Numbered from the stretch's first letter, positions 36,174 through 62,791 are shown. The stretch: 64,000 nucleotides of DNA from Yuukianura sp. NJ FZ-2021 (GCA_046563655.1 CM102288.1:1054001-1118000), one strand, 5' to 3'. The notes: generated by a model from the letters alone, not told the origin. Made by a program: numbers and translations.

Positions 36174-36267
36174 GCTCTAGTAGCATAATCGGTTAGTGCA
36201 CTGTACTTATAATCAGTACAAGTTGTAAGCTATGCAGGTTATGTGGGTTCGAATCCCACCTAGAGCA
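36174..36267 (+). tRNA. tRNA-Ile (anticodon TAT) with an intron of about 20 nt
   Basis: Acceptor stem GCTCTAG/CTAGAGC, D arm GCAT/GTGC, anticodon arm CTGTA-CTTATA^A-TGCAG, T arm GTGGG-TTCGAAT-CCCAC, downstream T run. Confidence 0.85.
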
Positions 36268-41100: not shown

Positions 41101-41120
41101 GCCTCCGTGGCGCAATTGGC

Positions 41121-41157
<37 letters not shown>

Positions 41158-41174
41158 GAGCCCACCTGGGGGCG
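41101..41174 (+). tRNA. tRNA-Asn (anticodon GTT)
   Basis: Canonical cloverleaf GCCTCCG...TTCGG-CTGTTAA-CCGAA...GGTGG-TTCGAGC-CCACC-TGGGGGCG followed by a T-run terminator. Confidence 0.97.
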
Positions 41175-44947: not shown

Positions 44948-45480
44948 AAACTTTTTAAAATTGTAAAGGTTCCTGTACTAACTGTGTAAAAGGTAAATTG
45001 AAACCAGCAGGATTTAAATTTTGGGGTTTTGGGTTTTAAGTTTAACGCCACTTTAAGATTGAGTGCAATTTGCACTGGGCAAACGCAGTTACTGTAAATC
45101 CAGGTTTTTGGCAACTAAAAAATCTACAGAAATAAATTTGTTGGGGCTAAACTTTAAAATTTTCCAATTTTTTAAAAATTGATATTGATTTTGAAAATGA
45201 ATTTGATTTGAAAAATGGAAATTGGAAATCGTTTAGGAAGTGTCATCAATCATTGCTGCTCGGCCAGAAACGTGTCAAGGTAAGACGCTTCCTGAATTGG
45301 AAATTTTTATATTCTTCGGAATTAGAAAACGCTAAGCTTGTCATTTTTTAAAAGTGTGGCCATATTGAATTTTTGTTTTTTCTTTCAGAAAGACACCGAC
45401 TTGACAAGTCCAAGTTTATTCAATAGAAGTAGAGCGTGACATCCGAAAGGAGAAAGGATAAGCCTTCCAGAAGTTCCAGA

Positions 45481-45571
45481 AGTAGATAGCTGGGTAGGAC
45501 AACGGGCTCATTTATTTTTAGAACAGCCACGGGGGTTAGTCGGCCGCAATATTGGGGAGGGAAAAAACTCA
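45481..45571 (+). repeat. Left terminal inverted repeat (91 bp)
   Basis: AGTAGATAGCTGGGTAGGAC...GGGAGGGAAAAAACTCA is the exact reverse complement of 62117-62207. Confidence 0.97.
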
Positions 45572-45691
45572 AAAGTCCTTGTTTGAACTTGAGAATTCCT
45601 AGAATTTTCCAACACCCGAGGCCTAACAAATTCCAAGAACTTTTAAACGAAAGTTCTTGTTTGAACTTGTCAATTCCTTGAATTCTCCAAC
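45572..45691. repeat. Left subterminal imperfect direct repeat (two copies of about 42 bp, 78 bp apart)
   Basis: AAAGTCCTTGTTTGAACTTGAGAATTCCTAGAATTTTCCAAC and AAAGTTCTTGTTTGAACTTGTCAATTCCTTGAATTCTCCAAC. Confidence 0.8.
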
Positions 45692-45838
45692 GCGCGGAGC
45701 AAAAAACAAATACTTTTTAATTTTTTGTCTATTACAAAGTTTAAGAGTTGCTCATTTTCAGCTTCTCTCTTGCCGCGTCAACAACTGAAAAAAACTTTTT
45801 AAAAACAGTAATTGCAAAGTAAATTTGTTATTGTCGAA

Positions 45839-46612
45839 ATGGCATATAAATTCGATTTCGAGCAGCTCCCATACCTGTGCCAATTAGAAATATATTCAAA
45901 TTTGGACAGGTGTAGCGCTTTGCGACTGGCTAAAGTATTTCCAGATTCCTTAGCCATACTCAAGCCAATGCTTGACAAGATGACTGCCAAAGTTGCAGAG
46001 TACACCCCATTTATGATAAGTGTTGGTGAGACACATATCGTCCATCTTGATTTCAACAAGAAACAAATGTTTAGAGTTGTGCTGGCAGCTCTAAAAAGTT
46101 TTCCGATTGGACGCGTCCTTACGGCGAAAAACTTTGTGACAGCGATTGCACCACACAGGACGTCAGTCGAAATCTCGCTATTCAAAAATTGTTCCGTCGA
46201 AGAGTTACTACCCCTCACCGAAAAATTCGACTTTGAGCGCGGGATTTTTCGGGACGACACTGTAATCAACATCACGCCTCATCGCTACAGCTGCAGATAC
46301 GAGACGTACGGCTGCAGATACGAAACGTATCAAGCCCTTGGAAGTATTGAAGACGCAAGACATCGTGGAGAGAGAAATCAGGAACTCCGGCGGCTACTTC
46401 TGGAGTCATCCATTGAATTTGACAAAGAGTTGGAAGAATGTCAGCGAAAATACCAATTAAAAATGCGTGAAGAAAAATTGCAACGTTTGCGCAAAGAAAA
46501 GTTCCAACGATGGATTCGTCGTCGGAAGGAATTGAAACAATCTTCTGCTTTTTTTAAGCTAAACATATATCGCCGTCGCTTAGCTCTTCAGCGTTTGAGC
46601 AAACGTAACTAA
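45839..46612 (+). CDS. Polinton accessory protein (257 aa) with N-terminal F-box-like motif and basic coiled-coil tail
   Basis: FEQLPYLCQLEIYSNLDRCSALRLAKVF fits the F-box LP-x-E/L-x3-I-x3-L pattern. AATAAA overlaps the stop codon. Confidence 0.6.
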   Translation: MAYKFDFEQLPYLCQLEIYSNLDRCSALRLAKVFPDSLAILKPMLDKMTAKVAEYTPFMISVGETHIVHLDFNKKQMFRVVLAALKSFPIGRVLTAKNFVTAIAPHRTSVEISLFKNCSVEELLPLTEKFDFERGIFRDDTVINITPHRYSCRYETYGCRYETYQALGSIEDARHRGERNQELRRLLLESSIEFDKELEECQRKYQLKMREEKLQRLRKEKFQRWIRRRKELKQSSAFFKLNIYRRRLALQRLSKRN

Positions 46613-46893
46613 ATAAAACGACAATAAATTCTTGAAATAATTAAATTATTTATAATGTTGTAATAAATGTTAAAAGTAAAAAATTTAGAAAAGTTTTAAA
46701 TATAAAGTAAATTGTATTCTTTATAATAAATTAAGAAGTTATAAAGTTAAAAAGTTTAATAAAATAGTAAAAATTTAAAAATATAAAGTAAATTGTATTA
46801 TTTAAAAAACAAAATTTATAAGTTATAAAGTTAAAAAAAGTTGAATAAAAAAAAGCAAAACAAAACAAAATAATTTTAAGACTGATTAACGTT

Positions 46894-47963
46894 TTACTTG
46901 TCACCCTTACAAATGCGGGCGTTCCTAGCATACTTGATAATAAGGTTGTATGTCCGCCGCATTCCAGCAAGGTCGATGTTGTTGTGAACATCAGCATTTC
47001 CATGTTCAACAACCATTCGGGCAGCATGACAAGCAATTCTGCCGCAGTTGTTGGCCGGTCCCAATGATGAGTAGAATATGTTGCGATTAAAGTTGGCGTA
47101 GTCCCATCGAATGGAATAAGGCATGTTGAATTTGTGGCGGAGAACTCTGTCCAGTTGAATTCTCACATTGAAGAGCCTTGCTGGTGCAAATGAGTCATAA
47201 AAGTAGCCACACCTAAAAAATAAAATAACAGTATTAAGCACATGCTAACCCACAATAAAGTAACATAATAAATGAAAACTTACCAATTTTTAACATCAAT
47301 AACCACCAGTAAGATATGGCCTGGAATTTTGACGCTAACCAGCAGGATCTCAGTGTCCGATGGCATGGCCAAAAAGGGCACATCAATAATGCCCAACACG
47401 TCCATTGTCGGGCTCATAAACGATGTCGCTCTGAGGTCGTAGTAAGGACAACCCAAAGCCGGCTGGATATCTTCCGAAACGTTCCACTTCACACAACGCC
47501 ATGCTTGCTCCGTCGGGATGTAGTGAATTTTTTTCCCTGAAGCTCTGACATCTTCCATGAGTTTCTACACAAAAACAGAACAAATTTATGATTAGTACTT
47601 AAAATTTAAAAAATATAAAAAAGTATAATTGTAAAATAAAACTAAACTTACCGTCATGAACGCGATAAAAACAGTAGGGAAGGTTCCACTTGCAGGGTTT
47701 TTCCGAAGCTCGTCCACGTGAGATTTCGCCACCTTAACGACGCCGTGATCGTAGTACTTCTCTTTGCACTTGAGCGGGAATTCCCTTGCCCAGTACAAAT
47801 CTGCAGCGGGGATTTCCGTTTTAATCTGTGCAGTGTCCGGAAGTGGTTTGTAGTTGGCTGAATCCGTCCAGTCTGCACGATGTTCCGGAAGGATATTCTT
47901 GAGCATGAAGTACGAATGTACTTCCTGGAGTCCGCGCTGTGTACGAACAATTCCGTTGACCAT
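46894..47963 (-). CDS. Spliced Polinton accessory gene: Ulp1/SENP-like (clan CE, C48-like) cysteine protease
   Basis: Exons ending at 47652, 47564-47284 and 47212-46894 join in frame through GTAAGT/AG introns. The product contains GHILLVVIDVKNWCGYFYDS and NNCGRIAC (His-Asp-Cys order). The start is uncertain: Met at 47963, or an upstream exon via the acceptor at 47998. Confidence 0.65.
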
Positions 47964-48519
47964 ATTGATGAGCTCGTCGCGAGCAGTGGTCGTGTTTCTG
48001 AAATTTTGAAATAAAGTTAACAAATTGGCGTGTTTAAACTGTTTTTAAAATTTAAAATAACTGTTTTTAAAATTTAAATTAACTGTTTTGTTTAAAAAAA
48101 TTTTCAGTTTTTTTCCATTTTGTCACTAATCAGTGCTTAAAGTACTGATTTCAACACACATTTGCCTGGCGAATCCGCTGGTGCAATTTGTTTTCACATA
48201 AACTTAATGTCTTAAAAGTTACAGCCACTTAAAGTCAGGCTTAATTTTAACCCTAATTTGAAGGTTTTTAGCATGTGGCTTATGCTTTTCAAAATTTAAA
48301 GAGTCATAAAGGTTACTCCCCAACACAGAATTTGATGGGGAATCGAGCGCTGGTTTTAGTTTTCATTTAACGCTTCACTGAAAAAAGTTACAACAGAAAA
48401 ACCGATTTTTCAGTGACTTTTCAAAATGGATGTTGGAAACATAAATAAATTATAAGAACAACCGACCTATAAAACGGCTTCTTAACATTTCATTGACACT
48501 TTTTTAACTATTATTAACA

Positions 48520-48782
48520 ATGATTTCATTTTTTAGTGATTTTTCAGTGATTTTTCAGTGCTTTTTCAGAGGAAATTTTTAATAAAATTCGATTTCACAT
48601 TTTGGAGCTTGTTTATTCTGATTATTTGATTATTTATTAACTAACATTAACTATGATCCCATTTTTTAGTGATTTTTCAGTGATTTTGCAGAGGAAATTT
48701 TTAATAAAATTCGATTTCACATTTTGGAGCTTGTTTATTCCGATTATTTGATTATTTATAGCTAAATAACTAACATTAACTA
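48520..48782. repeat. Tandem duplication (units of about 130 bp) upstream of pPolB
   Basis: TTTTTTAGTGATTTTTCAGTG...GAGGAAATTTTTAATAAAATTCGATTTCACATTTTGGAGCTTGTTTATTC...CTAACATTAACTA occurs twice. Confidence 0.85.
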
Positions 48783-48841
48783 AATAACATTAATTTTGAA
48801 ATTCACAAATTCATTTTACATAAATTCACAGCTTTCAAAAC

Positions 48842-51800
48842 ATGGCGAAAAGATCTGCATCTCCCGCTCCGGGTCCATCATCTAAGCGCGGGTGCCATAC
48901 ATGCGAAATCTGCAACGAGAAGTTCCCATGCGCAAATCAGCTGCTCATCCACATCCACATTCAGCATGAGGAGGAGGACGAGACTGTGAGCGAAGCAACA
49001 AAACAACTTCCACAGATGCCCACAGATGGCCCTGGCGTTCTTTCCATGTACCGTGAAATGAAATGCCCACCATGCAATCTGACATTTCCGTGTCGCGATG
49101 AAATGCAAAAACATTTTTACGAAGTTCATCCGGATTTTTTCTCTGATCTGGCGCAAGATGGAGGTCAACTTTCAACAACTTTGGAGCCAATTACCGTAGA
49201 ACCACTTTTCACATCGCTAAACACAGTGACACAATACAGGGCGGTATTTGAAGACTTTAAATGTGAAAATGGTGTCGATGAACGCGATTTTCTAAAGTGT
49301 GTCTATGATTCATCTGCAACATGGATCAAGCAAGACAGAAAAAAATGGAAGAACGTTAAAGTATTCTTCTCGATGGTATGTAATTTCAAAAAGTCTTATA
49401 TTAACGGTACAGTCGAGACAAACCGCGGCTGTTTCACGTCTTTTCGTCACCTTGTTTACACTGATGAAAGTATTCCAAAGGTGTGGAATATTATGGGTCA
49501 TCAGATGTCAAGCCAAATTGAAAATTTTACGAATGAGGGAAGTGGGTGGGACTTGGCCTATATTTCCGAGTTTAAATTCGTCACCGCCAAATACCAATTT
49601 ACTAAAATTGGAACTTTTATTGAAACACCATTTCCGCTTTCCGAACACAACAAAACATTGTTAAACATTGACAATAGTGAAGTGACACCGTCAAACTCTC
49701 ACAATCAGTGCTTCCTTTGGGCTGTTCTCGCTCATGACAGACTTGTCGGAGCAACTCTTGGAAGAAATCGTTCCAGAGTGGACAAAAAGGTCAAAACTTA
49801 CGCCCCCCATGTATCAAAGGTAAACACTCAAGGTTTGCAGTGGCCATTGACACTACAGCAGCTGCCACGTTTCGAGCAACTCAATCCAAACATCTCACTA
49901 ACAGTTCTCGGATATGACATGGATGCTCCAGCCCCCCCACCGCGAAAAAACGAGACTACTCGTCAAAGGTCAAAGGCCGCCCAAAAGGAAGACCTCGACT
50001 TGTTCAAATGTATGCAGGAGAATATTTCAATCCTCTACAACTCGAAAGAATCCAAACAAATTCACGTGGACTTGATGTGTCTGATGCGTGGCAACAACGC
50101 TCACTTTCTTCTAATTCGAAATCTTGAAGCACTAATGAAGCCTCCGAATGTTCACACTACATTGCACATTTGTCGCAATTGCCTTTCGAACTTTAGACTT
50201 CCAAGAACACTAAAAGAACATACTCCCTACTGTGCTGCGCTTGGACTCCAGAAAGTCAAATACCCGGAGGGGGATAAGTGCAACTTGAAATTTGACAAAT
50301 GGGCTCGCACTCAGCCAATTCCATTCCGCTTTTACGCAGACTTTGAAGCGTTCCTCAACAAGTTTGACTCTACATGCGAACACGAAGTCTGCCGCCAACG
50401 GCACAAAGCACAAATGACGGAATCAAAAGAAAAAGAAGTCAAGGAAAACACCCGTCGTGTTAATATCCACAAGCCGTGTGGATGGTCATGGGTCTGCGTT
50501 GACTTTAACGGTAACCGTCGCTATGGAGAGTGCTATCACATGACAGACGATAATGAAGACGTAGCTGCTCGCTTTGTTGAGAGCATTCTCAGATACTCCA
50601 AGATTCTTCAAAAAGAAGTTGACGAATATGAGAAGATTGCTCCGAGAATGCTGGATCAAAACATGACCCGAGAACAGCGTGAAGCTTCAGAACGTGAAAC
50701 AAAATGCTGTTTTTGTGAAAAAGCATTTTGTTTCGGCGAAACAAGAGTGCGACACCATACACACCTTCCACCTTTCAATTACATCGGTATGGCACATCAA
50801 TTCTGCAATCTTGAAGCCCAGATCAAAAAGGAATTTCCAGTATTCCTGCACAACTTATCCTCCTACGACGTGCACTTCCTGGTACAATCAATGGGGAAGC
50901 TCACAGAAGACAAAATCATCAAAAATGTTGAAGTCATTCCAAAAAGCAGTGAGAAATTCTTGTGCATGACCGTTACTCCAGAGTATTCCGGAGAAGCAGA
51001 AGAAGAAGAAGAAGACGACGAAGACATTGTCGGGAATGTTAGAAGACGTGAAAAGTACAAACTACGATTTACCGACAGTCTCGGCTTCACACTCAAATCC
51101 CTAGACGGCCTGGTTAAGGTAATGCGTCAAGACCCAAATGCCACCTTTCCAGTCACCCGACAAGAATTCCAACAGGAAGTCGACAGTGGCGCCAACATCG
51201 ATCTTCTCTTCCAGAAAGGCGCTTATCCATACTCACTTATGAAATCCTGTGAAGACTTTGAAATGACAAGTTTACCTCCAAAAGAAGCGTTCTTCAATGA
51301 CATGACCGAGGCGCCAATTCAAGATACAGTTTACGAGCATGCCCAGAAGGTTTGGGAAAGCTTTAAAATCAAAAACATGGGAGAGTGGCATGACCTTTAC
51401 GTGCGTCTGGACGTTTCACTTCTGGCTGACGTGATGGAGGGTGTTCGAAAACTTATGATGGACAGCTACGGTTTGGAACTGGGCCACTACTATTCTCTTC
51501 CAATGATGGCCATTGATTGTGCTCTAAAAAAGTCTGGAGTTGTTCTGGAGTTAATCAGCGACCCTACGATGCATTGTTTCTTAGAGCATGCGATCAGAGG
51601 TAAGAAATTATAAAGAAATTATATTGAAAATAATTGAAATTGTTGAAAATTAACCACTTCTTTTTAATTTAGGCGGCTTCGTGTGTGTGGGATCTCGACG
51701 TTCTGCAACTGCAAACCATCCTTACATGGGCGACGAGTATAATCCGGAGGAACCCATCTATTATATCATTTACATTGACGCGAATAATTTATACGTTAGT

Positions 51801-53306
51801 AATTTATATGTTCATAATTTATTTCATTTAATGAAAATATGTCAGAAATTAATTTTATTATATTTTTTTTTTTTTTTTTAGGGAAAAGCAATGAGTTTAG
51901 CGCTTCCCGTCGGAGATTTTCGTTGGCTGACTCAGGCTCAAATGGATAAAATTTTGGGAGATATTGACGGTTTCATTGCGGAAACAGACAGATTGAAGGA
52001 TACTGGGTATTTACTAGAGGTTGACCTGGAAATTGACCCAGAACTCCATGATCAGCTTAATGATTATCCTCCAGCTCCTACTGCAAGAACTGTTACACTG
52101 GATGAGCTCTCTGCACATCAGCAGCAACTCATGGAAGACCTCAACTCTGGGCCCGGTTTGTTCAAAGTGAAAAAACTTGTCGCAGATTTGAACAACAAAA
52201 AAAGCTACATCCTTCATCATGCCATTCTCAAGGAATACTTGGCAATGGGAGTTAAAGTCTCCAAAATTCACAAAGGTATCTCCTTCACACAGCACGCTTG
52301 GATGAAGGACTTTATTGACTTCAATACGGAAATGAGAAAAAAGGCCACCAGTGACTTTGCCAAGGACTTTTGGAAGTTGCTGAACAACTCCGCATTCGGA
52401 AAGACAATCGAGCAAGTCCGTAATCGTCAGAATGTCCGCATTGTCACAACGGTTGAGAAGGCGCTTTACTACAATAAGAAACCTACAGTTCAGAACGTGA
52501 TTCCAATAAATGAAACGACTTGTGTCTTTATGATGAAGAAGCTCCAGGTCACACTCAATAAACCAATCTTCACAGGAGTCACGGTACTTGAGCTAGCCAA
52601 GAGCATCATGTATCATCATCACAGGGTTGGCATGCAGGCAAAATATGGAGACAAGTGCCGCTTGATATACACCGATACTGGTAAGTATAAACTACTTTTA
52701 GTTTTTGTCAAAATTTTTTACACTAAATGTAAAAACAATTTTTTCCTTGCAGATTCATTCATTTATCACATTCAAACCGAGGATGTGTACCAGGACATGT
52801 TCGAAAACAAGGAATTGTATGATATGAGCGAGTATCCAGCCGATCATCCACAATTCGGAAAGTTTCACGACCCTGTCAACAAAAAAGTTCTGGGAAAATT
52901 CAAGGATGAGGCTGCTGGTGCCGTTATCACGCATGTGTACTGTCCAAGACCGAAGATGTACACCATTAGAAGTCTCAAAATCCAGACCGCCAAGTGTGAC
53001 CTCTCCGGAAGAACTATTTATCAAAAGAAGTCGGACGGTTCATGGCTGTTAAAGGATGAGTATACCAAGAAGGCAAAGGGAATTACAAAAACAGCGGTTA
53101 ACGGTCAGGTCAAGTATGAAGACTATGAGCGAGTCCTCAAGGAGAATGTGCAGACTATGGTTACCATGCGTGGTTTCAGAAGCGTCGAACACCGAATTTT
53201 CACAGAAGTAACCATAAAGAAGGCTCTCAACGGATTGGACACGAAGAGATATGCTGTAGATAGTGTTAATACTTTAGCTTTTGGTCATAAAGATATTCCA
53301 AAATAA
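48842..53306 (+). CDS. pPolB: Protein-primed family B DNA polymerase (pPolB), 4 exons, 1410 aa
   Basis: Exons 48842-51599, 51673-51794, 51882-52680 and 52753-53306 total 4233 nt in frame. Motifs: two C2H2 fingers, GSGW, CFLWAVLA, exonuclease YADFE / HNLSSYD / YVRLD, IRGG, DANNLYG, KLLNNSAFGK, YTDTDS, LGKFKDE, PKMY, KKAKG. Confidence 0.96.
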
Positions 53307-53426
53307 TACTTTTAATTAAATCTTTACACTATTATATTTTTATATTTTGTGTTATAAGATTATTAATTGTATATTAAACCAGTAAATTTCTGAAATTGAG
53401 TTTAGTCGTCATTAGTTCTTTGAACC

Positions 53427-54305
53427 ATGCAGGTCTCCTCTCGCTGTGGTAAATTATTTTCGCGTTCAGACGTGTCAAAGCGTCACGAGAAGACATGTTT
53501 CAAATGTTTCTCCATCTCTCCCACCACCGCCGCCGCCACATCCTGGGTGGTTCCAGCCATCGGTGGAGCAGGCTCCACCGTTGGAGGGAGTTCCACTGCC
53601 GCCGCCACCCCCGCCGCCGCCCTTACCGCCGCCGCCACTCTACTTCAGCATCCACGGTCGGGAGACGATATTGACTTGCAACTTGTGGCACCGTTTACAA
53701 TGTGTGTGAGCGGAATGACAAACACAGGCAAAAGCACGCTTGTCAAAGAAATTTTGATTCGAAGAAACGAAGTTGTAAAAACTTCAACTGGAATTGCAAA
53801 TGTAACTTATTGTTACACAGAGTGGCAGTCTGGGCTATTTGGAGAACTAAAAGCAAAAATTCCTGGCATTCAGTTTGTTCATGGACTGCCAGAGAAATGG
53901 CATGATGGTACTGACAGACCGTCAATTATGGTTCTGGATGATTTAATGCATGAAGCTGGGAAGAAGGGAGAGGTTGGAGCAGCCTTCACGAGAACTTCTC
54001 ATCACAGAAATGTGTCTCTGATTATTTTGGTTCAGAATTTTTTTCATAAGAATTTGAGAGAAATTACACTCAACTGTCAGTATTTGGTTCTCATGAAGAA
54101 TCCTCGAGACTCTGCGTTTGTTTCATGCCTTGGACGACAAATGAATGGAGGAAAAAAGAACGCTACAATGGATCTGGCTTACAAGGAGAGCATGGCAAAG
54201 CCCTACGGCTATCTTTTAATTGATCTGACTCAATCACAAAAGGACGACTATCGAATTAGGAGTAGCATTTTTCCCGAAAATTGTTATGTTTATGTCAATG
54301 AATAA
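53427..54305 (+). CDS. Genome-packaging ATPase (FtsK/HerA, A32-like)
   Basis: Walker A GMTNTGKS, Walker B IMVLDDLM, SHHRNVSLIILVQNFF, KNPRD, PYGYLLIDL. Low-complexity Ala-rich N-terminal extension. Confidence 0.93.
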   Translation: MQVSSRCGKLFSRSDVSKRHEKTCFKCFSISPTTAAATSWVVPAIGGAGSTVGGSSTAAATPAAALTAAATLLQHPRSGDDIDLQLVAPFTMCVSGMTNTGKSTLVKEILIRRNEVVKTSTGIANVTYCYTEWQSGLFGELKAKIPGIQFVHGLPEKWHDGTDRPSIMVLDDLMHEAGKKGEVGAAFTRTSHHRNVSLIILVQNFFHKNLREITLNCQYLVLMKNPRDSAFVSCLGRQMNGGKKNATMDLAYKESMAKPYGYLLIDLTQSQKDDYRIRSSIFPENCYVYVNE

Positions 54306-54380
54306 ATAAAATTCAAAAACAAAATTTTGTGTATTTCGAGTTGATTTATTCAAACATTTTTTTTTAAAATATAGTGTATT

Positions 54381-54557
54381 TTACAATTCAGTAACTAAAA
54401 TAGTTTTAGTATGTTGTTTGTTGGTTGATCCTCGTCTTGCAGTGGTTGAACAGCACATGCAGCTGATCTTGTTTTCGTCACAGACGGAGATGGCGGGATC
54501 TTCTTTGCCTGCAAACATCTTGGTCAAAAAGTATTCACAAACTTTAAAAAAGCACAT
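54381..54557 (-). CDS. Small Cys-rich ORF (58 aa), below the ORF-track cutoff
   Basis: MCFFKVCEYFLTKMFAGKEDPAISVCDENKISCMCCSTTARRGSTNKQHTKTILVTEL*. Fills the gap between the integrase and ATPase genes. Confidence 0.4.
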   Translation of the reverse strand: MCFFKVCEYFLTKMFAGKEDPAISVCDENKISCMCCSTTARRGSTNKQHTKTILVTEL

Positions 54558-54581
54558 GTTTACTTGTCTCTCTCTGAATCG

Positions 54582-55593
54582 CTACTGATCCAATTTCAAC
54601 AGCTGCTTGTCGTAAAAACTACCCAAAATAGGGGTACCCTCAAGGTCTTCTAACTTGTAAACGTATGGATTAGTTGCTATAACTCTCACAATTCGATAAA
54701 CTTCGTCAATATAGTTTGTCGAGTAGCCCTTTTCAAACGTTTTTTTAATTCTGGCGACAAGGACGAGGTCGTTTACGTTGAGTTTAGGCTTTTTATAGTC
54801 CACTGCAACTTCCGGGTACAAGTTGCGCCGTACTTCATCCTCATTCCTTTCAGTAACTTTGCACGGCGCCATTTTAATACTTCGATGATATGCATGATTG
54901 TACAGATTTTCAAAATCTGTCAATTTATCAACAAACTTTTTGGTTCTGTTATGTGTCAAGTAGCGCTGAATTTTCATGAATAGTGTGCGGATGAAACGTT
55001 CCACAATCACACATTTTAATGGAGAATGTGTCCAAAATAGTTTGATGTCTTCATGCTTCAGATACGTTTTCATGTGTTGATTAAGAAATTCAGAACCTTT
55101 GTCAACTTGCACTCTCTTTGGCTTTCCACCACTGCGCTCTAAATTTTTTTTAAATGCTGAAAGAACTACTGGTCCTGTCTTGTTTGGAGTTGCTTCGATC
55201 CAGCCTTGTTTTGAAAAAGCGTCAATAACCACCAACAAATACCTAGAAAACAAATTCGAGTTTTTTTTTTTTTTTTTTTTAAAAACCCTAACCTAACCTA
55301 ACCCAACCTAACCTAACCTAACCTTACCTTTTTTTGTTATTGGCTCCCGACATGTTTTGAATGTCCTTCAAGTCTGCACAATACTGTTCATGCATGCCTC
55401 CAACATAAACTCTCCGACGTGGAAACCGATATCGAACTGGACGATGGAGTTAATAACTTGGAATTTGCTTCAAAATTTTCTTGACGCGGTGTGGAGACGC
55501 CTTAGTGTTTGAATCTTTTTGAAACCCAAATGCTCCAGAAAAACTTCCAGGTAGTAAAGTGTTTAACCATCGTTGTTTCAGATCGGTGTCCAT
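54582..55593 (-). pseudogene. Retroviral-like (RVE/DDE) integrase, 2 exons, with an in-frame TAA at codon 48
   Basis: Exons 55593-55328 and 55242-54582. PGSFSG...SY*LHRPVRYRFPRR...QYCADL...RYLLVVIDAFSK...QVDKGSEF...VERFIRT...TFEKGY. The stop is at 55452-55450. Confidence 0.88.
55287..55321. repeat. (CCTAA/TTAGG)7 tract inside the integrase intron
   Basis: CCTAA x3, CCCAA, CCTAA x3, abutting the splice donor. A T20 run is adjacent (55261-55280). Confidence 0.9.
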
Positions 55594-55658
55594 GGTGGAA
55601 ATGAAATAAAAGGACGCTGCACAGTTCAATTTGTATCATTCAGTCTCTAGCAATCAAA

Positions 55659-55994
55659 ATGGCTGGAAGCAAAATCAACAAACATCTTAATTTTCTCAAA
55701 AACTTGAATTCTCGCTCTGAAAAGAAACGATCTTTGCATTTAAATAGTGCGAGTCCAGAACAAATTCGAGCTATTTGCGAATGTGCACACAACGTGTACA
55801 ATGGACGTTTAGTGATCCCACCAAAAGCTATAAAACGACTCATTCCTCACAAAGATCACATCAGACGTCTGATTGCACGCAGAGGAAAAGCAGATCATAA
55901 GCGCCGTCTTCTTGTCCAACAGGGTGGATTTCTACCATTGCTACTTGGTGCAGCAATTCCAGTATTAGGAGAACTTTTAGGTAAACTTTTATAA
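55659..55994 (+). CDS. Conserved small basic Polinton virion protein with a QxGG site and C-terminal amphipathic peptide
   Basis: ICECAHNVYNG...HKDHIRRL...LLVQQGG|FLPLLLGAAIPVLGELLGKLL. The pattern is typical of Maverick core proteins and resembles the adenovirus pX C-terminus. Confidence 0.8.
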   Translation: MAGSKINKHLNFLKNLNSRSEKKRSLHLNSASPEQIRAICECAHNVYNGRLVIPPKAIKRLIPHKDHIRRLIARRGKADHKRRLLVQQGGFLPLLLGAAIPVLGELLGKLL

Positions 55995-55996
55995 CC

Positions 55997-56653
55997 ATGC
56001 CCACGAAATACAAAGTCATTAGTGATGAAGACTTTGAGCGCCTAATGACTCAAACTTCTAAACCAACTGAAATCGGCAGACTCGAGAGTGAAAAAAATCA
56101 GTTGCTCAATATTAAAGATTCGGAAGAAATTCAAAACAAGTTACTTCAAGACGTTTTACGACGATTGGCAGACAAGAAGAAACGCGAAAAAACAGAAAGT
56201 ATTGTTAAATCCGTGCCTGAGCCGTCCGTGTCATCAGTGGACATCCCGCCCAGTCCATCGCCAGTTGAGAAATTTGACTTTGGTGGTCGTACAAGGCTTG
56301 GAGTTCATCTTTTGCAGTTTTTTATTGACAATGGAACCACACTAGCCTCAGGAATTGTAAACTTTGACGGTGGATCACTACCAATTTCTACATTTGATTC
56401 AATACTTAAAAAACTGTCAAATGGAAGATGCAAAATTTCAAAGGATGAACTCGAACCAATAAAAAACTTTTTAACCTCAAAAAGATTTCCATTGTCTATC
56501 CTACCCAAAGCACACCTCCATCTCTTTACGGGAGAAGACTCTGACGTGGCTACTCCTGGAAAAAATCGAAAAAGCATGCACAAATCTCGGAAACGAGCTC
56601 GAGTGGATGACAGCTTTCTGGACGAATGGAAGACCCCACCGAATTGGAAATAA
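55997..56653 (+). CDS. Polinton hypothetical protein (218 aa)
   Basis: Intact ORF starting 2 nt after the upstream stop. Basic C-terminus ending in W-x5-WK; AATAAA at the stop. Confidence 0.7.
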   Translation: MPTKYKVISDEDFERLMTQTSKPTEIGRLESEKNQLLNIKDSEEIQNKLLQDVLRRLADKKKREKTESIVKSVPEPSVSSVDIPPSPSPVEKFDFGGRTRLGVHLLQFFIDNGTTLASGIVNFDGGSLPISTFDSILKKLSNGRCKISKDELEPIKNFLTSKRFPLSILPKAHLHLFTGEDSDVATPGKNRKSMHKSRKRARVDDSFLDEWKTPPNWK

Positions 56654-56675
56654 ATTTAAATACAACAACAAAAAT

Positions 56676-57200
56676 TTACAATTTTATACAACATTGATTT
56701 ATTATTTTGTGTTTAAATTTACAATTTGAATTCAATAAAGGATTTTTTAATATTACAAATTTGCGTACTTTTTTATCATTTAATTGTTTATTGGGAGAAA
56801 AGTGACAGTAAGTAGATAGAATACAACAGCCATGCATCATTTTATACAAAAAGTAGATTGCATATTGCCCACAAACATTAGAGTCAAGGGCTTGCAATGG
56901 TCTAGTATTTTCCAAAATTTTACAAGAAAACTTATTTACAAAATTTCTAAAGTCAATAGGGTAAAAATCCAGTCCAAGTCCATAAGAGCAAAAGAAGATG
57001 ATTGGTCCAGTTCTGCCTCCAATGTAGATTGCCACCCAATGTTCTCCAGGATGATCAGAAGGCTTGTTATTTACAACCAAGTAGGCTGGAAAGTGAGCAA
57101 TTGTTAGCTTTCCAAGTAGGTCGCATGGTATTACATTGAAATATGCTCTTGTTCCGCGAGTCATATTTGACAAAAACTTGTAAATTTGTGTGGTGTCCAT
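56676..57200 (-). CDS. Adenain-like (C5) maturation cysteine protease
   Basis: VVNNKPSDHPGEHWVAIY...FFCSYG...LQALDSNVCGQYAIYFLY...NDKKV. Confidence 0.9.
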   Translation of the reverse strand: MDTTQIYKFLSNMTRGTRAYFNVIPCDLLGKLTIAHFPAYLVVNNKPSDHPGEHWVAIYIGGRTGPIIFFCSYGLGLDFYPIDFRNFVNKFSCKILENTRPLQALDSNVCGQYAIYFLYKMMHGCCILSTYCHFSPNKQLNDKKVRKFVILKNPLLNSNCKFKHKIINQCCIKL

Positions 57201-58501
57201 TAGTGTGAATAGTCTTTGAAAAACACGTTCTTTCCTTCGTCAATATACAGAGTAGATTGAAAGTCAGCGTGACAGACAACGTTCCAAGCCTCAGTGGTAG
57301 GTTTTGCAAACTGAACGACGATTTTTATACTTCCGTGTCTTGGGGGACAGTAGCCTTGATTCATGTTTCTGAGGTTAAAAATGAAAAACGCCTTTCCATT
57401 TGTAAACTCGGAAAGGCTAATAGCAGGTCCTTCATTGCTAGCACACAGTCCAAGACCGCTAAACATTCCATAGTATGCTTCAGAAACTCGAACATCGCCA
57501 TCACTGTTGTACTGGTAAACCTGATGATAAAGTTGTTCTCCGTTTGCTGTGACGGAAATTTGTCTCAATTCTGGAGGATTAAAGTCAAATGGATTTGTAG
57601 TCAGAGTTCCGTTCATTTTTTCACTTTGAACTAGGCAAAGTATAATTCTGTCAGGAAGTAGTCCATTAATCAAGTTTTCATTCACATTTGACACAGTGCC
57701 AAGGGGCAAGCTGTACGTTTTCATCTCGATCCGTCTCATTGGGTAGCATGCCGGCTGACCATTAGCCCACATTTTCAAATGACAATTCAAAATATTCGGT
57801 AACAGAGTATGTTTTTTAACTAAAAGTCTGGCTTCAGTAATATTGATTTTGTAGCGATTTGTATTGTCTGCCTGAGAGTGGAGTGCAAATTCTTCGGTGG
57901 AGCGGTTGAAAGTAACTCTAATGTCGATTCCAGGAAGCAAGTAGCGAGTTTGGGCAAAGATGTCAGCAAACGGTCGTCCAATCATGTCCAAGCCCTTGGC
58001 TGCTAATTCTTGTCTCTTTTTGTGGGAAGTGTCAGTGTCACTCAAATTCTCTTCCTCTCTCAAGTAAAGAGCAGTAACTGCTTGTGTATCCTTGTAGTCT
58101 CCTCCATATGCAAGCACAGTCTCAATATAGGCCCGATACGGATAGAGTGACATGGTTGGAGTAATTTGTGTTTCATTTAGAAACACAGAGCACTGCTGAA
58201 ACAAGGAATGTAAAAAGTTGTTGACTGGAGCGATTCGCATGGTGGCTCTCTCGTCCATTTTATCACTATTTGCTTTTGAAATCTTGCAGCCAACATATAG
58301 CAAAGTTTCACTTAAATCAACATAGTGAACGTCATTTCCTTTGATTTGAAAAGAAATTGGACCTCCATTTTCATTTAATGCTGACAATGGATGGTACTCA
58401 AACATTCCACTACTTTGAAGACTAACGTCCATTTCTGGTTCACTAAATATATCGGTTTCACTTCTAACTACTTCTGGGTGAGGAGCGTGTTTGGAACTCA
58501 T
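57200..58501 (-). CDS. Major capsid protein (double jelly-roll; Polinton PY)
   Basis: EYHPLS...PISFQI...YVDLSETLLY, PVNNFLHSLFQQCSVFLN...YPYRAYIETVLAY, DIFAQTRYLLPGIDIRV, LPDRII, NPFDF. 433 aa. Confidence 0.92.
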   Translation of the reverse strand: MSSKHAPHPEVVRSETDIFSEPEMDVSLQSSGMFEYHPLSALNENGGPISFQIKGNDVHYVDLSETLLYVGCKISKANSDKMDERATMRIAPVNNFLHSLFQQCSVFLNETQITPTMSLYPYRAYIETVLAYGGDYKDTQAVTALYLREEENLSDTDTSHKKRQELAAKGLDMIGRPFADIFAQTRYLLPGIDIRVTFNRSTEEFALHSQADNTNRYKINITEARLLVKKHTLLPNILNCHLKMWANGQPACYPMRRIEMKTYSLPLGTVSNVNENLINGLLPDRIILCLVQSEKMNGTLTTNPFDFNPPELRQISVTANGEQLYHQVYQYNSDGDVRVSEAYYGMFSGLGLCASNEGPAISLSEFTNGKAFFIFNLRNMNQGYCPPRHGSIKIVVQFAKPTTEAWNVVCHADFQSTLYIDEGKNVFFKDYSH

Positions 58502-58924
58502 TGTTCTTCAAATATATTTCTTGGCCTTTTTTCTTGAGAGCGTTTTTTGGTTTTCGTTTTTGCTTCCTCTTCCTTGAACGTCCAGATCCTGACTGAGTAG
58601 AAAGAATACCGTCTGCAACGCCTTTAAGTACTCCCTTCCAAGCGGTCGAACCGTGTTCAGAAATAGCTTCCTTGACGGATTTTTTCCACCAATCACGTCA
58701 GAAGCTATACCAGCAACAGCAGTTTTAGCATGAGGCATTAAATATTTTGTCACATATGGCAAAACTTTTCGAAAAATTGAGCCAAAAATTCCACCAATTC
58801 CGTGACCACGCTGACGAAATTGATTGGCTTTGAAGAATACAGCTCCGTCTGATCCAACAGCTCCTCCACGCTGGGGATTATAAATTCTAAAGAAATCGTC
58901 CTCGCTCAAGTTGCATTTGTACAT
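58498..58924 (-). CDS. Conserved Polinton virion protein (QRGxG-GIG-amphipathic helix family), apparently frameshifted
   Basis: YNPQRGG...FRQRGHGIGGIFGSIFRKVLPY...ASDVIGG. The expected continuation (KSVKEA...QSGSGRSRKRK) lies in the -1 frame after the A6 run at 58685-58680. Confidence 0.75.
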
Positions 58925-58989
58925 CTTGACAGTTTGACGTTTGAAAAGTTAATGATTGATAATTTTTGAGAGCGCTGTTTTTATACCCC

Positions 58990-59691
58990 TCAGTATCGCT
59001 TCCGTCGAAAGTGTAGAGTGGCAGAGAAAGTTCCAACCGTGAATAATGGTGGATCGCCAGATTCCGTCATGATGTACATCCAAATATGATCAATATCGTC
59101 AAATACAACGTCCACGTATTGAAGATGTTGAAATGATCGGGTCACGACCTTCTTGTGTTCGCCCGTATTTGAAATTTTTCTCAATAGTGGGGCAAGGTCA
59201 CCGCCGACGCGTTGGTTTTCAATTATACTACAGTAAATGAAAAGTTGTGTGTGTCCACTCGGCTCAAAAACCTCGTACTCAAAGCTCTGTTTTCCCTCAT
59301 CAAATCCGAGAATTCTAGCTGCCTCCTCATTAAGCTTGACAACTGTGTTTGCAGGTTTCTTTTTAAAACTAGCTTTCGAGTTTTTAATTTCAACTTCCAC
59401 AAGATTGTCAGATATACGTTCTGCAAGTTCCTCTGCAGTACGAATCAAGGTAACGTCACCAGAGTTTATTGTGCCCAAATCAAAATAAGAATTATCAACT
59501 TGTCTAAGCCATCCTTCTTTATGTAGCAAATATTCATGATGAACATATGTACACTCCACGAGCGCCACCTCGTATTTAACACCCTCTAATCGAATTGTCT
59601 CTGCAAAATGATTTCTAAAATTTGTAATTGTGTTCTCTGGATAGTGATTTGAAGAAGAATCACTCTGCAGAGTTACGTAAAAGTCTCCCAT
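58990..59691 (-). CDS. Minor capsid protein (penton; Polinton PX)
   Basis: FYVTLQSDSS...YPENTITNFR...YEVALVE, LFIYCSIIENQRVGGDLAPLLR, QYVDV, TLHFRR. An alternative ATG is at 59715. Confidence 0.9.
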   Translation of the reverse strand: MGDFYVTLQSDSSSNHYPENTITNFRNHFAETIRLEGVKYEVALVECTYVHHEYLLHKEGWLRQVDNSYFDLGTINSGDVTLIRTAEELAERISDNLVEVEIKNSKASFKKKPANTVVKLNEEAARILGFDEGKQSFEYEVFEPSGHTQLFIYCSIIENQRVGGDLAPLLRKISNTGEHKKVVTRSFQHLQYVDVVFDDIDHIWMYIMTESGDPPLFTVGTFSATLHFRRKRY

Positions 59692-59824
59692 GGCTGCTAG
59701 TTTTAGACTAAACATTTAAAATGAAGAACGAGCGTTTAAATACCTTTTTGGTGGAAGTCAAAAATTTATTTTTAGAATTCTTAAAACTAACAATTTTTAC
59801 AAAACAGAAATGTTAAAAAATTGT

Positions 59825-60241
59825 TTAAAATTTAGTGTCTTCGGCGATCCAGTATTTTCCCTCGACTTCGTCAGAGTCTTCTTCAGGAATTGTATTCAAG
59901 CGGGGCTTGAGAGATTTACGGTTCCAGACAGCTTTGCTCATCGCTTCAGCTACAATGTCCATTTTCGGCTTCTTTGCTTGTTGACCCTTATCAGCGTAGC
60001 GCTCCTTACATTCCAACAGCAATAGTTCAAAGTTAGGCAGCTCGCTTATTGGATTTCCCGTCGAAAGAAAGAAGAGAATCAGCTTTGAAACCAGAAATGG
60101 AATTTCCTTCATTTCGATTGTAGTGTAGTAGCGATCCTTCTTGATAAAGACTTTGTATTCTCCATCTTCCACCTTCCACCAGCATTTGACACGATCTTCA
60201 AGGGTCTTGCTCACGAATCCTGCAGCGTATGCTTCAACCAT
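59825..60241 (-). CDS. Polinton hypothetical protein (138 aa)
   Basis: Intact ORF with its own TATA-like/TCAGT upstream. Shares a motif with the 60731-61582 ORF. Confidence 0.65.
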   Translation of the reverse strand: MVEAYAAGFVSKTLEDRVKCWWKVEDGEYKVFIKKDRYYTTIEMKEIPFLVSKLILFFLSTGNPISELPNFELLLLECKERYADKGQQAKKPKMDIVAEAMSKAVWNRKSLKPRLNTIPEEDSDEVEGKYWIAEDTKF

Positions 60242-60356
60242 TGTAGTACTTGAGGAGTAGTTTTTGAGGAGAAGTTTCAACTGAAGCTGAAATGAGACTG
60301 ATGGTTTGTTGAGCAGACGAGCAGCCTTTTTATCCCAAATTTTCAGGTAGAAGTTT

Positions 60357-60541
60357 GACCCTTTTTTTCTATTTTTAGCAATTCCAACAACTTAAATTTC
60401 TTGGAAAAAGGATTAAACGAACAACTCGAAACGTTTTTCAACAGAAACGACCCTTTTTTCTATATTTAGCAAATCCAACAACTTAAATTTCTTGGAAAAA
60501 GGATTAAACGAACAACTCGAAACGTTTTTCAACAGAAACGA
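60357..60541. repeat. Tandem duplication, 92-bp period
   Basis: GACCCTTTTTT...CCAACAACTTAAATTTCTTGGAAAAAGGATTAAACGAACAACTCGAAACGTTTTTCAACAGAAAC occurs twice. Confidence 0.9.
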
Positions 60542-60730
60542 GTCTTTTCCTAATTCTAGGAAAAATAAACGTTTTTTTTCGACATTGTCTAAAAATAGAA
60601 AGGACTAAAAGTTCAACGACTCTCAAACGACATTCTCAAAATAAAATAACCCAAACAACAGAAAATTTGAAAATGTACAAGTTTGAATTTATTCAAATAC
60701 AAAAACTGCTACTAAAGTAGATTATACAAT

Positions 60731-61582
60731 TTAACAAAAAATGTCAAAAGCTGAAATTTGCTTAACACCATAAAAAATAATGTTGAGAACTGTATCATCA
60801 GAGTATGACGCTTGACGATACATGTTAAGATGGACCAGTCTAAAGTGCTCGTTAAAGTCATGGTTTGGAGTACGTCTTTGGTTGTTAATTTGAATTTGTT
60901 GATGTTTGGTAACGTCCAGAACATGCTTCGAGTAGGCTGGATTTAAAATGAAAGACTCTGGCGATAAATAGCAGGCAAATCGGTGAAACACGTTTGGTTT
61001 TTTGTATGGATGAACTTTCTTGTTCGTCTTTAAACCGGCAGCCTTGCCAATTGTTTCTTTAATTCTGTTGGCACGAGTGTTGAGAATTTTATCGCGTAGC
61101 TTTCTCATGTATTCACGTTTGGACTCATGAATGAGCTCATCCAGATACTTTTCTGTATATGAGGTCGGAAAGCAGCCACACTTTAGAAGTGATTCCACCA
61201 GAAGAGGAATGTCCATGATTTCGATGGGAAGTGGACGACCGCTACGTATGAGAAACACTCGATTCACATTGCCTGTGATGCAGTGGATAGGAAGAAGCGG
61301 TCGCTCTAGCTTTTCTTTGAGTGTTTGAAACTCTGCGGGTGACTGCTGACGAAATAACTTTAGGAATCCATTCTTGCGGTTAGTTGCCATGATTGTTTCA
61401 AAGTGTGGTAAATCCTTCATCATTTCTCCTGCGGCTATGTATGCTTTTACTAGCTTTTCCACCACGGTTGGCAGTTCCTCTGCTGTCAGAAGAATCGAAT
61501 GTCCAGAAATCTTGACTGCGATGACATCTTCCATGTCAATAAACGGTTCCGAAACCTCCATGTATGATCTGAATCCCCGCAT
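60731..61582 (-). CDS. Polinton hypothetical protein (283 aa)
   Basis: Intact ORF with upstream TACTTAAA...TCAGT and an internal repeated beta-beta-helix-like motif. Confidence 0.7.
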   Translation of the reverse strand: MRGFRSYMEVSEPFIDMEDVIAVKISGHSILLTAEELPTVVEKLVKAYIAAGEMMKDLPHFETIMATNRKNGFLKLFRQQSPAEFQTLKEKLERPLLPIHCITGNVNRVFLIRSGRPLPIEIMDIPLLVESLLKCGCFPTSYTEKYLDELIHESKREYMRKLRDKILNTRANRIKETIGKAAGLKTNKKVHPYKKPNVFHRFACYLSPESFILNPAYSKHVLDVTKHQQIQINNQRRTPNHDFNEHFRLVHLNMYRQASYSDDTVLNIIFYGVKQISAFDIFC

Positions 61583-61796
61583 GCTTATAGTTTGTGACTG
61601 GTTTCTGAACTGATGATTGCTAGTCTCAAAACTCGCTGTTTAAGTACTACTTGGACAACGTTTGAAATGCTATTTTGAAATTTTTTCAAAAACGTTTTTT
61701 CTAAAGAAATGTTATTTTGAGAACTTTTCAAGAAAAAACGTTTTTCTTGAGAAAAGATATTTTTCCAAGAACTCAAGCCTTAACTAAAAATAAATA

Positions 61797-61937
61797 AAAA
61801 AATAATAACATTGACCCCAGTCTTGTATCTAAGTACTTGTAACTTCTTAACCACAAGCGTTGACCCGTGTGGTATTCGAACCAGCGGTCGTAGAGAAGTA
61901 GTTACAAACACTTAGACACTAGGCTAGAGTCAATGTT
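61797..61937 (-). ncRNA. Putative Pol III-transcribed hairpin RNA (VA-RNA-like) of the Polinton
   Basis: A-box-like TAGCCTAGTGT (61926-61916), B-box-like GGTTCGAATACC (61882-61871), 42-bp imperfect stem 61937-61896 / 61848-61807, and T runs immediately downstream. Confidence 0.55.
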
Positions 61938-61964
61938 CGAATTTTATATACAAAAATTTCACTA

Positions 61965-62116
61965 CTTGTTTTTTGTTGTCGACTTTTTTGTTATCGACAT
62001 TTTTTGTCGACATTTTTGTTTTCGATCTTTTTTTGTCAACATTTTTGTTGTCGGCTTTTTTGTTGACGACATTTTTTGTTGACGACATTTTTTGTTGACG
62101 ACATTTTTTGTTGTTG
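61965..62116. repeat. Right subterminal short tandem repeats (about 12-16 bp, TTTTTTGTTGACGACA-like)
   Basis: About ten degenerate T5-6-GT(T)GTCGAC/GACGAC units abut the right TIR. Confidence 0.85.
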
Positions 62117-62207
62117 TGAGTTTTTTCCCTCCCCAATATTGCGGCCGACTAACCCCCGTGGCTGTTCTAAAAATAAATGAGCCCGTTGTCCTACCCAGCT
62201 ATCTACT
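62117..62207 (-). repeat. Right terminal inverted repeat (91 bp)
   Basis: Exact reverse complement of 45481-45571. Confidence 0.97.
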
Positions 62208-62791
62208 CCAGAGCACTTGAATTTAAGTGGCAGAAGAAGTGGACGTGTTAAATTGACTGAAGACATTTTGAATGGAGGAGTCGCCTAACGCGTTTCCTAA
62301 AATTTTGGAAAAGTTGTCTTTTCCGAAAATGTTTATTTCTGGAGAAAGCGTAGGAAGGAAGGCTTACAGTAATCCGGAGGACTTATTTTCCCATTCGCTA
62401 AAATATGATGATGTCAAAGACGGAATATGATTGGCATTGGCACGTACAGTTCCAGAAAAAGAGAGCACGTAAGCTTTTTTTGAAACCATTTTCTTCAATT
62501 TTCTCTACTTTTTCAAAAATTTTCTCTTTCTTTTGAAAAGAATAGGACTTTGATTGTCTTTTATTCTCCCGAGTCATGTCCATGTCCTCTCTGTCACAGA
62601 ATCTAAAGTGAATAATGGAATTGCCTTGTGTGTCTTTAGGAATGACAAAAGGAGAATAGGTTTCCTAGAAATCTAGAGACTAAAGACTTCGTGTTTTCTA
62701 GTTTCTCTCTTTATGTTCCCGCGTCTTTCGGATCGCTGAATCGCTGAATCACTTTTCCAAATTGTTTAAACCTTATCCTTTTACTTATTAG

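Follow-up and report, generated by a model that had tools for sequence, protein, structure and literature searches.

Adenoviruses, which are relatives of the Polintons, use RNA polymerase III (Pol III) to make the virus-associated (VA) RNAs, and these decoy PKR and Dicer. Other viral hairpins driven by Pol III include the microRNA (miRNA) cluster of bovine leukaemia virus (BLV), the primary miRNAs (pri-miRNAs) of simian foamy virus and the tRNA-miRNA (TMER) genes of murine herpesvirus 68 (MHV68), as described in excerpts of four papers (PMC12498455, PMC3993851, PMC8223928 and PMC4337559). In order to see whether anything comparable is known for Polintons, we searched for Polinton, Maverick or adintovirus together with Pol III, VA RNA, hairpin, non-coding RNA or tRNA-like; the excerpts returned describe no Pol III gene or structured RNA gene. 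Here we describe a long imperfect hairpin near the right end of a complete Polinton, located in a 64,000-nt stretch of the Yuukianura sp. NJ FZ-2021 assembly (GCA_046563655.1, CM102288.1:1054001-1118000). We call this whole stretch the window and count positions from its first letter. An earlier note, made from the sequence alone, had proposed a VA-RNA-like Pol III transcript at this site and had known of no such RNA from Polintons, with which the excerpts agree.

The hairpin is real, lineage-specific and probably tRNA-derived. Its fold favours one strand, its motifs resemble those of a Pol III gene and are spaced as in a tRNA gene, it has a defined position in the element, and it is carried by many copies in two organisms. 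Of the readings that we have considered we favour the following one, tentatively and with less than even confidence: that a Pol III unit of type 2, derived from a tRNA and forming part of the cargo of the Polinton, would here give rise to a ~140-nt minus-strand RNA that engages the double-stranded RNA (dsRNA) and small-RNA machinery of the host.

The two arms of the hairpin (Table 1) pair in the register i + j = 123744. The pair table gives 34 Watson-Crick pairs and 8 differences, which is exactly the count that the earlier note had given for a 42-bp inverted repeat. Six of the differences are of the transition type and two are transversion mismatches. Among the six, five form G-U pairs on the minus strand and one on the plus strand, again in agreement with the note. 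Pairing extends from the arms into the 47-nt "loop" (61849-61895), and the minimum free energy (MFE) structure of the minus strand has 59 pairs in all, with 10 G-U pairs on this strand versus 2 on the plus strand over the whole stem. Folded as RNA, the minus strand is the more stable of the two: it reaches -62.9 kcal/mol (z -8.96, with none of 200 shuffles as good) versus -46.4 kcal/mol (z -6.09) for the plus strand. As DNA the two strands fold equally and with moderate stability (-27.8 kcal/mol for the minus strand, -26.9 kcal/mol for the plus strand), and the asymmetry is therefore specific to the energetics of RNA pairing. In a sliding fold of 17.4 kb (45001-62400, 1151 segments of 150 nt) an MFE below -58 kcal/mol was found at two places only, the hairpin and a coding stretch near 53.5 kb. 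The latter, a strong minus-strand fold at 53.46-53.70 kb, was dropped as GC-rich low-complexity coding sequence. A fold at 47.8 kb was also dropped, with a z of only -2.6.

The minus strand carries the three motifs that the earlier note had pointed out: an A-box-like motif shortly after the start of the stem, a B-box-like motif in the loop region and a T run right after the 3' arm. Each box is indeed one position away from its consensus. The first TTTT downstream of the B box is the T7 run itself, 69 nt further on, and there is none between the A box and this run. We searched for such box pairs with a strict tRNA-type consensus (TRGCNNAGTGG and GGTTCGANNCC, at most one mismatch in each and a gap of 24-70). 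The minus strand of the hairpin is the only A+B unit found in the 128 kb made up by both strands of the window, and 100 shuffles produced none.

The layout of these motifs, as read from the sequence, is that of a tRNA. Behind a 7-nt acceptor-like TTGACTC lie the A box, at position 8, and the B box, at position 52, and a GGGTCAA able to pair with all 7 nt of TTGACTC closes the tRNA-like unit at 74 nt. The gap of 33-34 nt between the boxes equals that of the tRNA-Asn gene in the window. What remains of the hairpin RNA runs antisense to its initial ~50 nt, with a second GGGTCAA at its end. The hairpin may thus be read as a degenerate tRNA-like sequence joined to an inverted partial copy of itself.

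How could such a unit work? From these features we infer transcription, the polymerase, the ends of the RNA and its function. TFIIIC would bind the B-box-like and A-box-like motifs on the minus strand. Pol III would then start near the base of the stem (about 61938-61945) and stop in the T7 run at 61802-61796; similar T runs terminate the two tRNA genes of the window. The product would be a ~140-nt RNA with paired 5' and 3' ends, an imperfect duplex of ~59 bp with 10 G-U pairs. This RNA may be a substrate or a competitor for Dicer and Argonaute of the host, that is, either a precursor of small RNAs or a decoy that blunts the silencing of the element. The earlier note had inferred a dsRNA decoy, a suppressor of RNA interference (RNAi) or a small-RNA precursor. 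A decoy for PKR is unlikely, because the named relatives point to an invertebrate host and PKR is known as a vertebrate protein. A role related to RNAi is the more plausible form of the idea.

The hairpin is not confined to a single copy of the element. Contigs from DNA sequencing runs of two organisms, A and B, were mapped to the window at a likeness of at least 80%. In run X1 the summed contig depth, which does not equal copy number, is ~517 over open reading frame (ORF) 283, the gene downstream of the hairpin, 1481-2058 over the promoter region between them, 1495-1593 over the hairpin, 3321 over the terminal inverted repeat (TIR) and 45-80 over the host flank. The hairpin is therefore about as deep as the adjacent promoter region and about half as deep as the TIR. 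Runs X2, X4 and X5 show the same pattern. With this reservation about depth, the pattern is the one that a single hairpin per element end would give, and not that of a self-dispersing repeat. At least six distinct contigs (records 5, 13, 15, 20, 27 and 29), from the two organisms, bridge the edges of the hairpin into the Polinton flanks on both sides. They do so at 83-99% likeness, and record 12 shows 1 difference in 133 nt.

Our comparison of copies covers 40 of 122 differences and 24 of 118 loose ends. Within it, no joint among those listed skips the hairpin, no loose end falls at its edges, and no contig listed places it outside a Polinton. The earlier note had considered that the sequence might be a dispersed miniature inverted-repeat transposable element (MITE) of the host. 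This is not supported, because the depth matches that of neighbouring non-coding DNA and the contigs bridge into the Polinton; the hairpin travels with the Polinton family in both organisms. Three of the differences are substitutions in the stem (Table 1), and all three keep the pair on the minus strand, from Watson-Crick to G-U or back, while creating an A-C mismatch on the plus strand. None of the differences listed falls in either box.

One alternative, possible if somewhat unlikely, is a functionless relic: the hairpin would descend from a tRNA-derived repeat (the head of a short interspersed element, SINE, or a MITE-like foldback) or from a local inverted duplication in the non-coding right end of an ancestor, and would since have been copied passively. 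The host DNA of the window does hold another long foldback (34728-35006). The hairpin is restricted to its lineage, with no counterpart in Polintons further away, its boxes are imperfect, and among copies it is no better conserved than the ORF. The TIRs are 99% alike, which indicates that the family is young, and a relic would therefore not yet have decayed. Other observations speak against a relic. There is no target-site duplication (TSD) around the palindrome, where the flanks …AATAAT / CGAATT… share no duplication. The box-bearing strand has no A-rich or simple-repeat tail and ends in a T run at its 3' side, and the 64-kb window holds no second copy of the hairpin. Its depth, no higher than that of adjacent Polinton non-coding DNA, and its purely Polinton context among the contigs listed argue in the same direction. 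Furthermore, the 10:2 split of G-U pairs and the three pair-keeping substitutions out of three would be unexpected under neutral decay.

That said, a number of results weigh against a Pol III gene. The strand bias of the G-U pairs is real but modest, with a two-sided binomial p of ~0.04 for the 10:2 split over the whole stem and a binomial p of ~0.22 for the 5:1 split over the 42-nt arms alone. The earlier note had taken these pairs as a sign of selection on a minus-strand duplex; the structure and the strand asymmetry on which this claim rested stand. The 81-nt 5' part of the hairpin RNA folds no better than shuffled sequence (z -1.28). The three pair-keeping substitutions come from an incomplete census of the differences. 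Moreover, the hairpin is not better conserved than the ORF among copies, with 9-32 differences in 117-191 nt of the hairpin contigs versus 6 differences in 686 nt of the ORF.

The boxes themselves are open to criticism. Under a looser published consensus (TRGYNNARNNG and GGTTCRANYCY, from PMC12498455; at most one mismatch in each) the window contains 12 A+B units against a mean of 6.1 in 60 shuffles, and its two real tRNA genes match with 0 mismatches. The box pair of the hairpin is not significant by this test, in which the A box carries little information. The B box of the hairpin deviates at a nearly invariant place: it has an A at position 10, which is C in 90.4% of 70 B-box motifs according to an excerpt of the same paper.

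Comparison with RNA families gave little. No Rfam family reached its gathering threshold, either in a 2-kb region or in 186 nt searched with lax filters. The adenovirus VA RNA model did not match at E values up to 10 in either search, so the likeness to VA RNAs does not amount to membership of their family, and the tRNA model matched neither the 2 kb nor the 186 nt. The highest sub-threshold scores belong to MIR821 (35.9 bits, threshold 249), MIR2630 (34.3 bits, threshold 144) and, lower, MIR7807 (29.6 bits, threshold 90); the best model that is not a miRNA is Plasmodium RUF6-5 (RF01581), with an E of 1.8e-5 in the 186-nt search. ARAGORN found no tRNA in the hairpin at its default or 90% thresholds. 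The hit that it returned at 80% carries no weight, because a shuffled window then yields ~26. There is thus no support for a cloverleaf as such.

Nor is the hairpin found in more distant Polintons. We collected 27 metagenome loci whose capsid genes are related to that of the window (35-74% identity). Only four of them (L009, L014, L018 and L027) extend as far upstream of the capsid gene as the position of the hairpin, and the contigs of the closest two (L001 and L002, 73-74% capsid identity) end short of this region. None of the 27, including all four that are long enough, has sequence similar to the right end. L009, a complete 15-kb element with TIRs, has no long hairpin, and the palindrome of L018, with arms of 36 nt, is made of the AAACGTTT motif itself. 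L014 does have a hairpin (146-364; arms of 76 nt, 88% complementary), which is unrelated in sequence and lies directly upstream of a AAACGTTT motif and of a cargo ORF of 739 aa that contains DUF3472 and DUF5077. The strand that carries the downstream genes gives the better fold (-125.9 versus -112.6 kcal/mol), with a 4:1 split of G-U pairs in the stem. However, boxes are missing and both strands contain T4 runs, and the L014 hairpin therefore cannot be a full-length Pol III product. Its presence may be coincidental, or it may hint that a structured element recurs at this place in a role that does not depend on Pol III.

ARAGORN found no tRNA genes in the 27 loci. An A+B unit in L021 was dropped as unrelated, since it forms no hairpin and is located past a capsid gene that is truncated. 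In IMG/VR there was no relative of the capsid protein and no exact match to a 23-nt core of the hairpin or a 31-nt core of the TIR.

The place of the hairpin in the element raises a different possibility. On the minus strand the right end reads TIR, tandem repeats, TATATAAAA, hairpin (61945-61797), T-rich stretch, promoter-like region and ORF283 (61582-60731). Beyond ORF283 come another promoter-like region and ORF151, and the conserved structural genes follow these. The tandem repeats are found at this end only, and one-sided repeats near a terminus recall the packaging repeats of adenoviruses. Their number varies among genomic copies, as contig joints skip 144 and 32 nt. The left end of the element has a different pair of direct repeats, of ~60 nt.

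Such a position, between one-sided subterminal repeats and the first promoter-like region, would suit a signal that acts as DNA: either a barrier bound by TFIIIC and resembling tRNA gene DNA (tDNA), which would shield the first promoter, or a cruciform or other structure used for replication or packaging. tDNAs and B boxes can serve as chromatin barriers, a B-box-like motif is present, and the unrelated hairpin of L014, with its T4 runs on both strands, occupies a matching place. We consider this improbable all the same. The strands fold equally and only moderately as DNA, yet the mismatches favour one RNA strand; perfect arms would suit a cruciform better; a complete relative, L009, does without such a hairpin; and a barrier needs neither a hairpin nor a terminator.

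The gene next to the hairpin is peculiar to this lineage. ORF283 has no relatives of near length in a large protein collection and no Atlas lead, and ORF151 (59825-60280) has no relatives in the same collection. Neither has a counterpart in L009 or L014, and the hairpin therefore lies in a lineage-specific cargo arm. The two ORFs have a domain of ~50 residues in common, at a weak pairwise E of 6e-5, which occurs twice in ORF283.

Both are preceded by regions that look like promoters. The palindromic AAACGTTT occurs seven times in the window, six of these in the Polinton, and five of the six fall in two intergenic clusters, upstream of ORF283 (61690 and 61736) and upstream of ORF151 (60429, 60520 and 60567). 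It recurs in L009 as a cluster (7617-7984) that precedes the first structural-arm gene, in L018 (576-607 and 2413-2765) and once in L014 (374-381), just before the first ORF. We regard it as a candidate for a conserved promoter motif or factor-binding motif of this Polinton clade. It is often present as inverted pairs ~45 nt apart, and the relatives that carry it have 35-44% capsid identity. In addition, TTTTTCCAAGAA and an AAAATAG element are common to the upstream regions of ORF283 and ORF151. Most of the upstream region of ORF151 is a direct repeat of ~90 nt in two copies (60350-60560), each with AAAACGTTT and TTTTTCCAAGAA.

The earlier note had argued that ORF283 has a promoter-like motif of its own downstream of the hairpin, and the motifs common to the second intergenic region and to related Polintons support this; the hairpin is therefore separate from the unit of ORF283. 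A hairpin of -63 kcal/mol would in any case make a poor leader for a scanned mRNA, and TATATAAAA appears to lie too near the stem to be the -30 TATA of a start at the stem base. The least probable of the alternatives is an RNA polymerase II (Pol II) product begun at TATATAAAA or further upstream, either processed like a hairpin RNA or pri-miRNA or regulating translation as the long leader of the ORF283 mRNA: in its favour are a canonical TATA-like motif on the same strand just before the stem, long plant-type miRNA precursors as the best sub-threshold Rfam matches and the better fold of the gene strand in L014, but a start ~30 nt past the TATA would fall in the 5' arm and prevent the full hairpin, ribosomes could not scan through such a leader, a promoter-like region already precedes ORF283, and the Rfam scores are far below their thresholds.

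The carrier is a Polinton (Maverick), as the earlier note had proposed: TIRs, TSD, capsid, polymerase, integrase and ATPase are all present in an element of ~16.7 kb that is complete in the window. The TIR tips are AG…CT, and CCAGA lies flush on both sides, a TSD of 5 bp, or 6 bp with one ambiguous base. The gene for the major capsid protein (57200-58501, minus strand) has 318 relatives, some of them named major capsid protein or F54H12.2-like. The named ones come from a springtail, a scale insect and a scallop, so that the host is probably an invertebrate. The protein-primed family B DNA polymerase was recognized with the 1134-aa ORF of L009 in a tblastn search and occupies two ORFs (48842-51613 and 51891-53306). 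DNA_pol_B_2 is found on 15-36% of the members of the Atlas clusters nearest to it, and a sequence search of the PDB with the two ORFs gave no match. The frame is interrupted at 51601-51672, between ORFs of 923 and 471 aa, by either a short intron or a break, with homology to the polymerase of L009 on both sides. An rve integrase lies in two pieces on the minus strand (55587-54591; Pfam rve, E 1e-9, 39 bits against a cut-off of 32.6). The ATPase (53427-54305) is 43% identical to its homologue in L009 and has a weak Pox_A32 hit. No protease was identified among the Polinton genes. ORFs of 241, 138 and 174 aa around the capsid gene are syntenic with L009.

Some contigs also report on the ends of other copies. 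In organism A (runs X1 and X5) contigs join the TIR at 62199, 8 nt short of its tip, via four other letters to 61890 in the apical region of the hairpin. This looks like a second element end inside the hairpin of another copy, by nested insertion or by rearrangement. A contig of run X4, from organism B, matches the host flank (62207-62400) with 3 differences in 194 nt, and the match ends exactly at the TIR tip, 62207, past which the contig continues in sequence unlike the Polinton, as if organism B lacked the insertion here; in run X2 the match of a contig begins at 62211 after 411 unlike letters. Both would fit the boundary of the element together with an empty or polymorphic insertion site.

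Table 1. Positions of the hairpin, its motifs and substitutions, and the surrounding features of the Polinton right end and termini.
Feature	Position	Strand	Remarks
Imperfect hairpin, candidate ~140-nt RNA (about 61940 down to about 61797)	61797-61950	minus	RNA fold and pair table
5' arm of minus-strand hairpin (right arm in the earlier note)	61896-61937	minus	pair table
3' arm of minus-strand hairpin (left arm in the earlier note)	61807-61848	minus	pair table
A-box-like TAGCCTAGTGT	61926-61916	minus	one mismatch (last base) to either consensus; 11 nt from stem start 61937
B-box-like GGTTCGAATAC	61882-61872	minus	apical 47-nt loop region; 33 nt after A box; one mismatch, position 10
T7 run, Pol III-terminator-like	61802-61796	minus	4 nt past 3' arm
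TATA-like motif TATATAAAA	61942-61950	minus	5 nt upstream of stem
Stem substitution	61813		G>A in organism B
Stem substitution	61888		T in window, C in all other contigs
Stem substitution	61908		A in window, G in all other contigs
Promoter-like region of ORF283	61660-61790	minus	inverted AAAACGTTTTT pair, 61690-61697 / 61736-61743, 15/15 complementary
ORF283, lineage-specific, downstream of hairpin	60731-61582	minus	ORF call
Tandem repeats, seven to eight, 15-16 nt, TTTTTGTTGACGACA type	61970-62126		between hairpin and right TIR; absent at left end
Left TIR	45481-45574		94 nt
Right TIR	62114-62207		94 nt, 99% complementary to left TIR

The host DNA elsewhere in the window has features of its own. 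The foldback mentioned above has 87-nt arms that are 94% complementary, with outer arms of 41 nt; it resembles a MITE, and its sequence shows no relation to that of the Polinton hairpin. Of the two tRNA genes, both on the plus strand, one (36173-36268, 96 nt) apparently bears an intron and was not assigned an anticodon by ARAGORN, and the other is a tRNA-Asn(GTT) gene (41101-41174). In both genes the A and B boxes are perfect and the terminator is a T5-T7 run. The host DNA also includes a split gene resembling TMF1 (37999-40271).

The hairpin also raises a more general question. Have some animal Polintons captured tRNA-like sequence and turned it into a Pol III gene for a ~140-nt hairpin RNA, one that interferes with the small-RNA defence of the host or feeds it? 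This is possible, though we think it rather doubtful. If true, no non-coding RNA gene would have been known from Polintons before it, and the strategy of the adenovirus VA RNAs would have been invented independently. In that case the hairpin of L014 would point to structured RNAs, placed upstream of the first cargo promoter or late promoter, as a recurrent feature of the clade. Polintons are widespread in animals and protists, yet hardly any work has addressed how they are expressed or how they and host silencing come into conflict. A gene of this kind would offer a testable handle on how they deal with RNAi, and would add a further case of viruses borrowing tRNA-type promoters for structured RNAs. 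Should the hairpin be a relic or a DNA signal, it still marks an architecture of the right end that consists of TIR, one-sided repeats, hairpin and a promoter with AAACGTTT.

How, then, does the locus compare with known systems? With tRNA-derived SINEs and MITE-like foldbacks it shares a tRNA-like head, boxes at positions 8 and 52 and a palindromic unit of ~140 nt, the size of a MITE. Unlike these, it has no TSD, tail or second copy in the window, and both depth and contig bridges tie it to the Polinton. The model of the RUF6 non-coding RNAs of Plasmodium (RF01581) aligns with a long hairpin that has a B-box-like apical motif and a T-rich 3' end. However, the score of 34.2 bits is below the threshold of 70, and hosts and composition are unrelated. 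The two are alike in shape, not homologous.

The Pol III-driven hairpins of BLV, simian foamy virus and MHV68, as far as the excerpts describe them, have a type 2 promoter of A and B boxes in or beside the hairpin, followed by a T run, and they belong to integrated or latent elements that use Pol III to make substrates for Dicer, which is what we propose for the hairpin. In the MHV68 genes, according to the same sources, a tRNA-like part is followed by a paired part, as here. The differences from these descriptions are that the stem is ~59 bp here, versus ~22 bp in a pre-miRNA, that it is a single unit and not a cluster, and that the tRNA-like part is one arm of the hairpin and not a separate cloverleaf.

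Adenovirus VA RNA I and II provide a parallel in carrier and design. They too are highly paired RNAs of ~140-160 nt, a length that is only proposed for the hairpin RNA, and they end in a terminal stem. Their internal A and B boxes, like the box-like motifs of the candidate, lie in the 5' strand of the stem and in the apical part, and a T run follows as terminator. Their carrier is likewise a linear double-stranded DNA with a protein-primed polymerase and a double jelly-roll capsid. The candidate differs in having no match to the Rfam VA model, in being a simple hairpin with no recognisable central domain, and in lying near the terminus; with a host that is probably an invertebrate, PKR is also an unlikely target. 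A tRNA-like sequence, taken up in a separate event, is the probable source of the candidate, rather than common inheritance with the VA RNAs.

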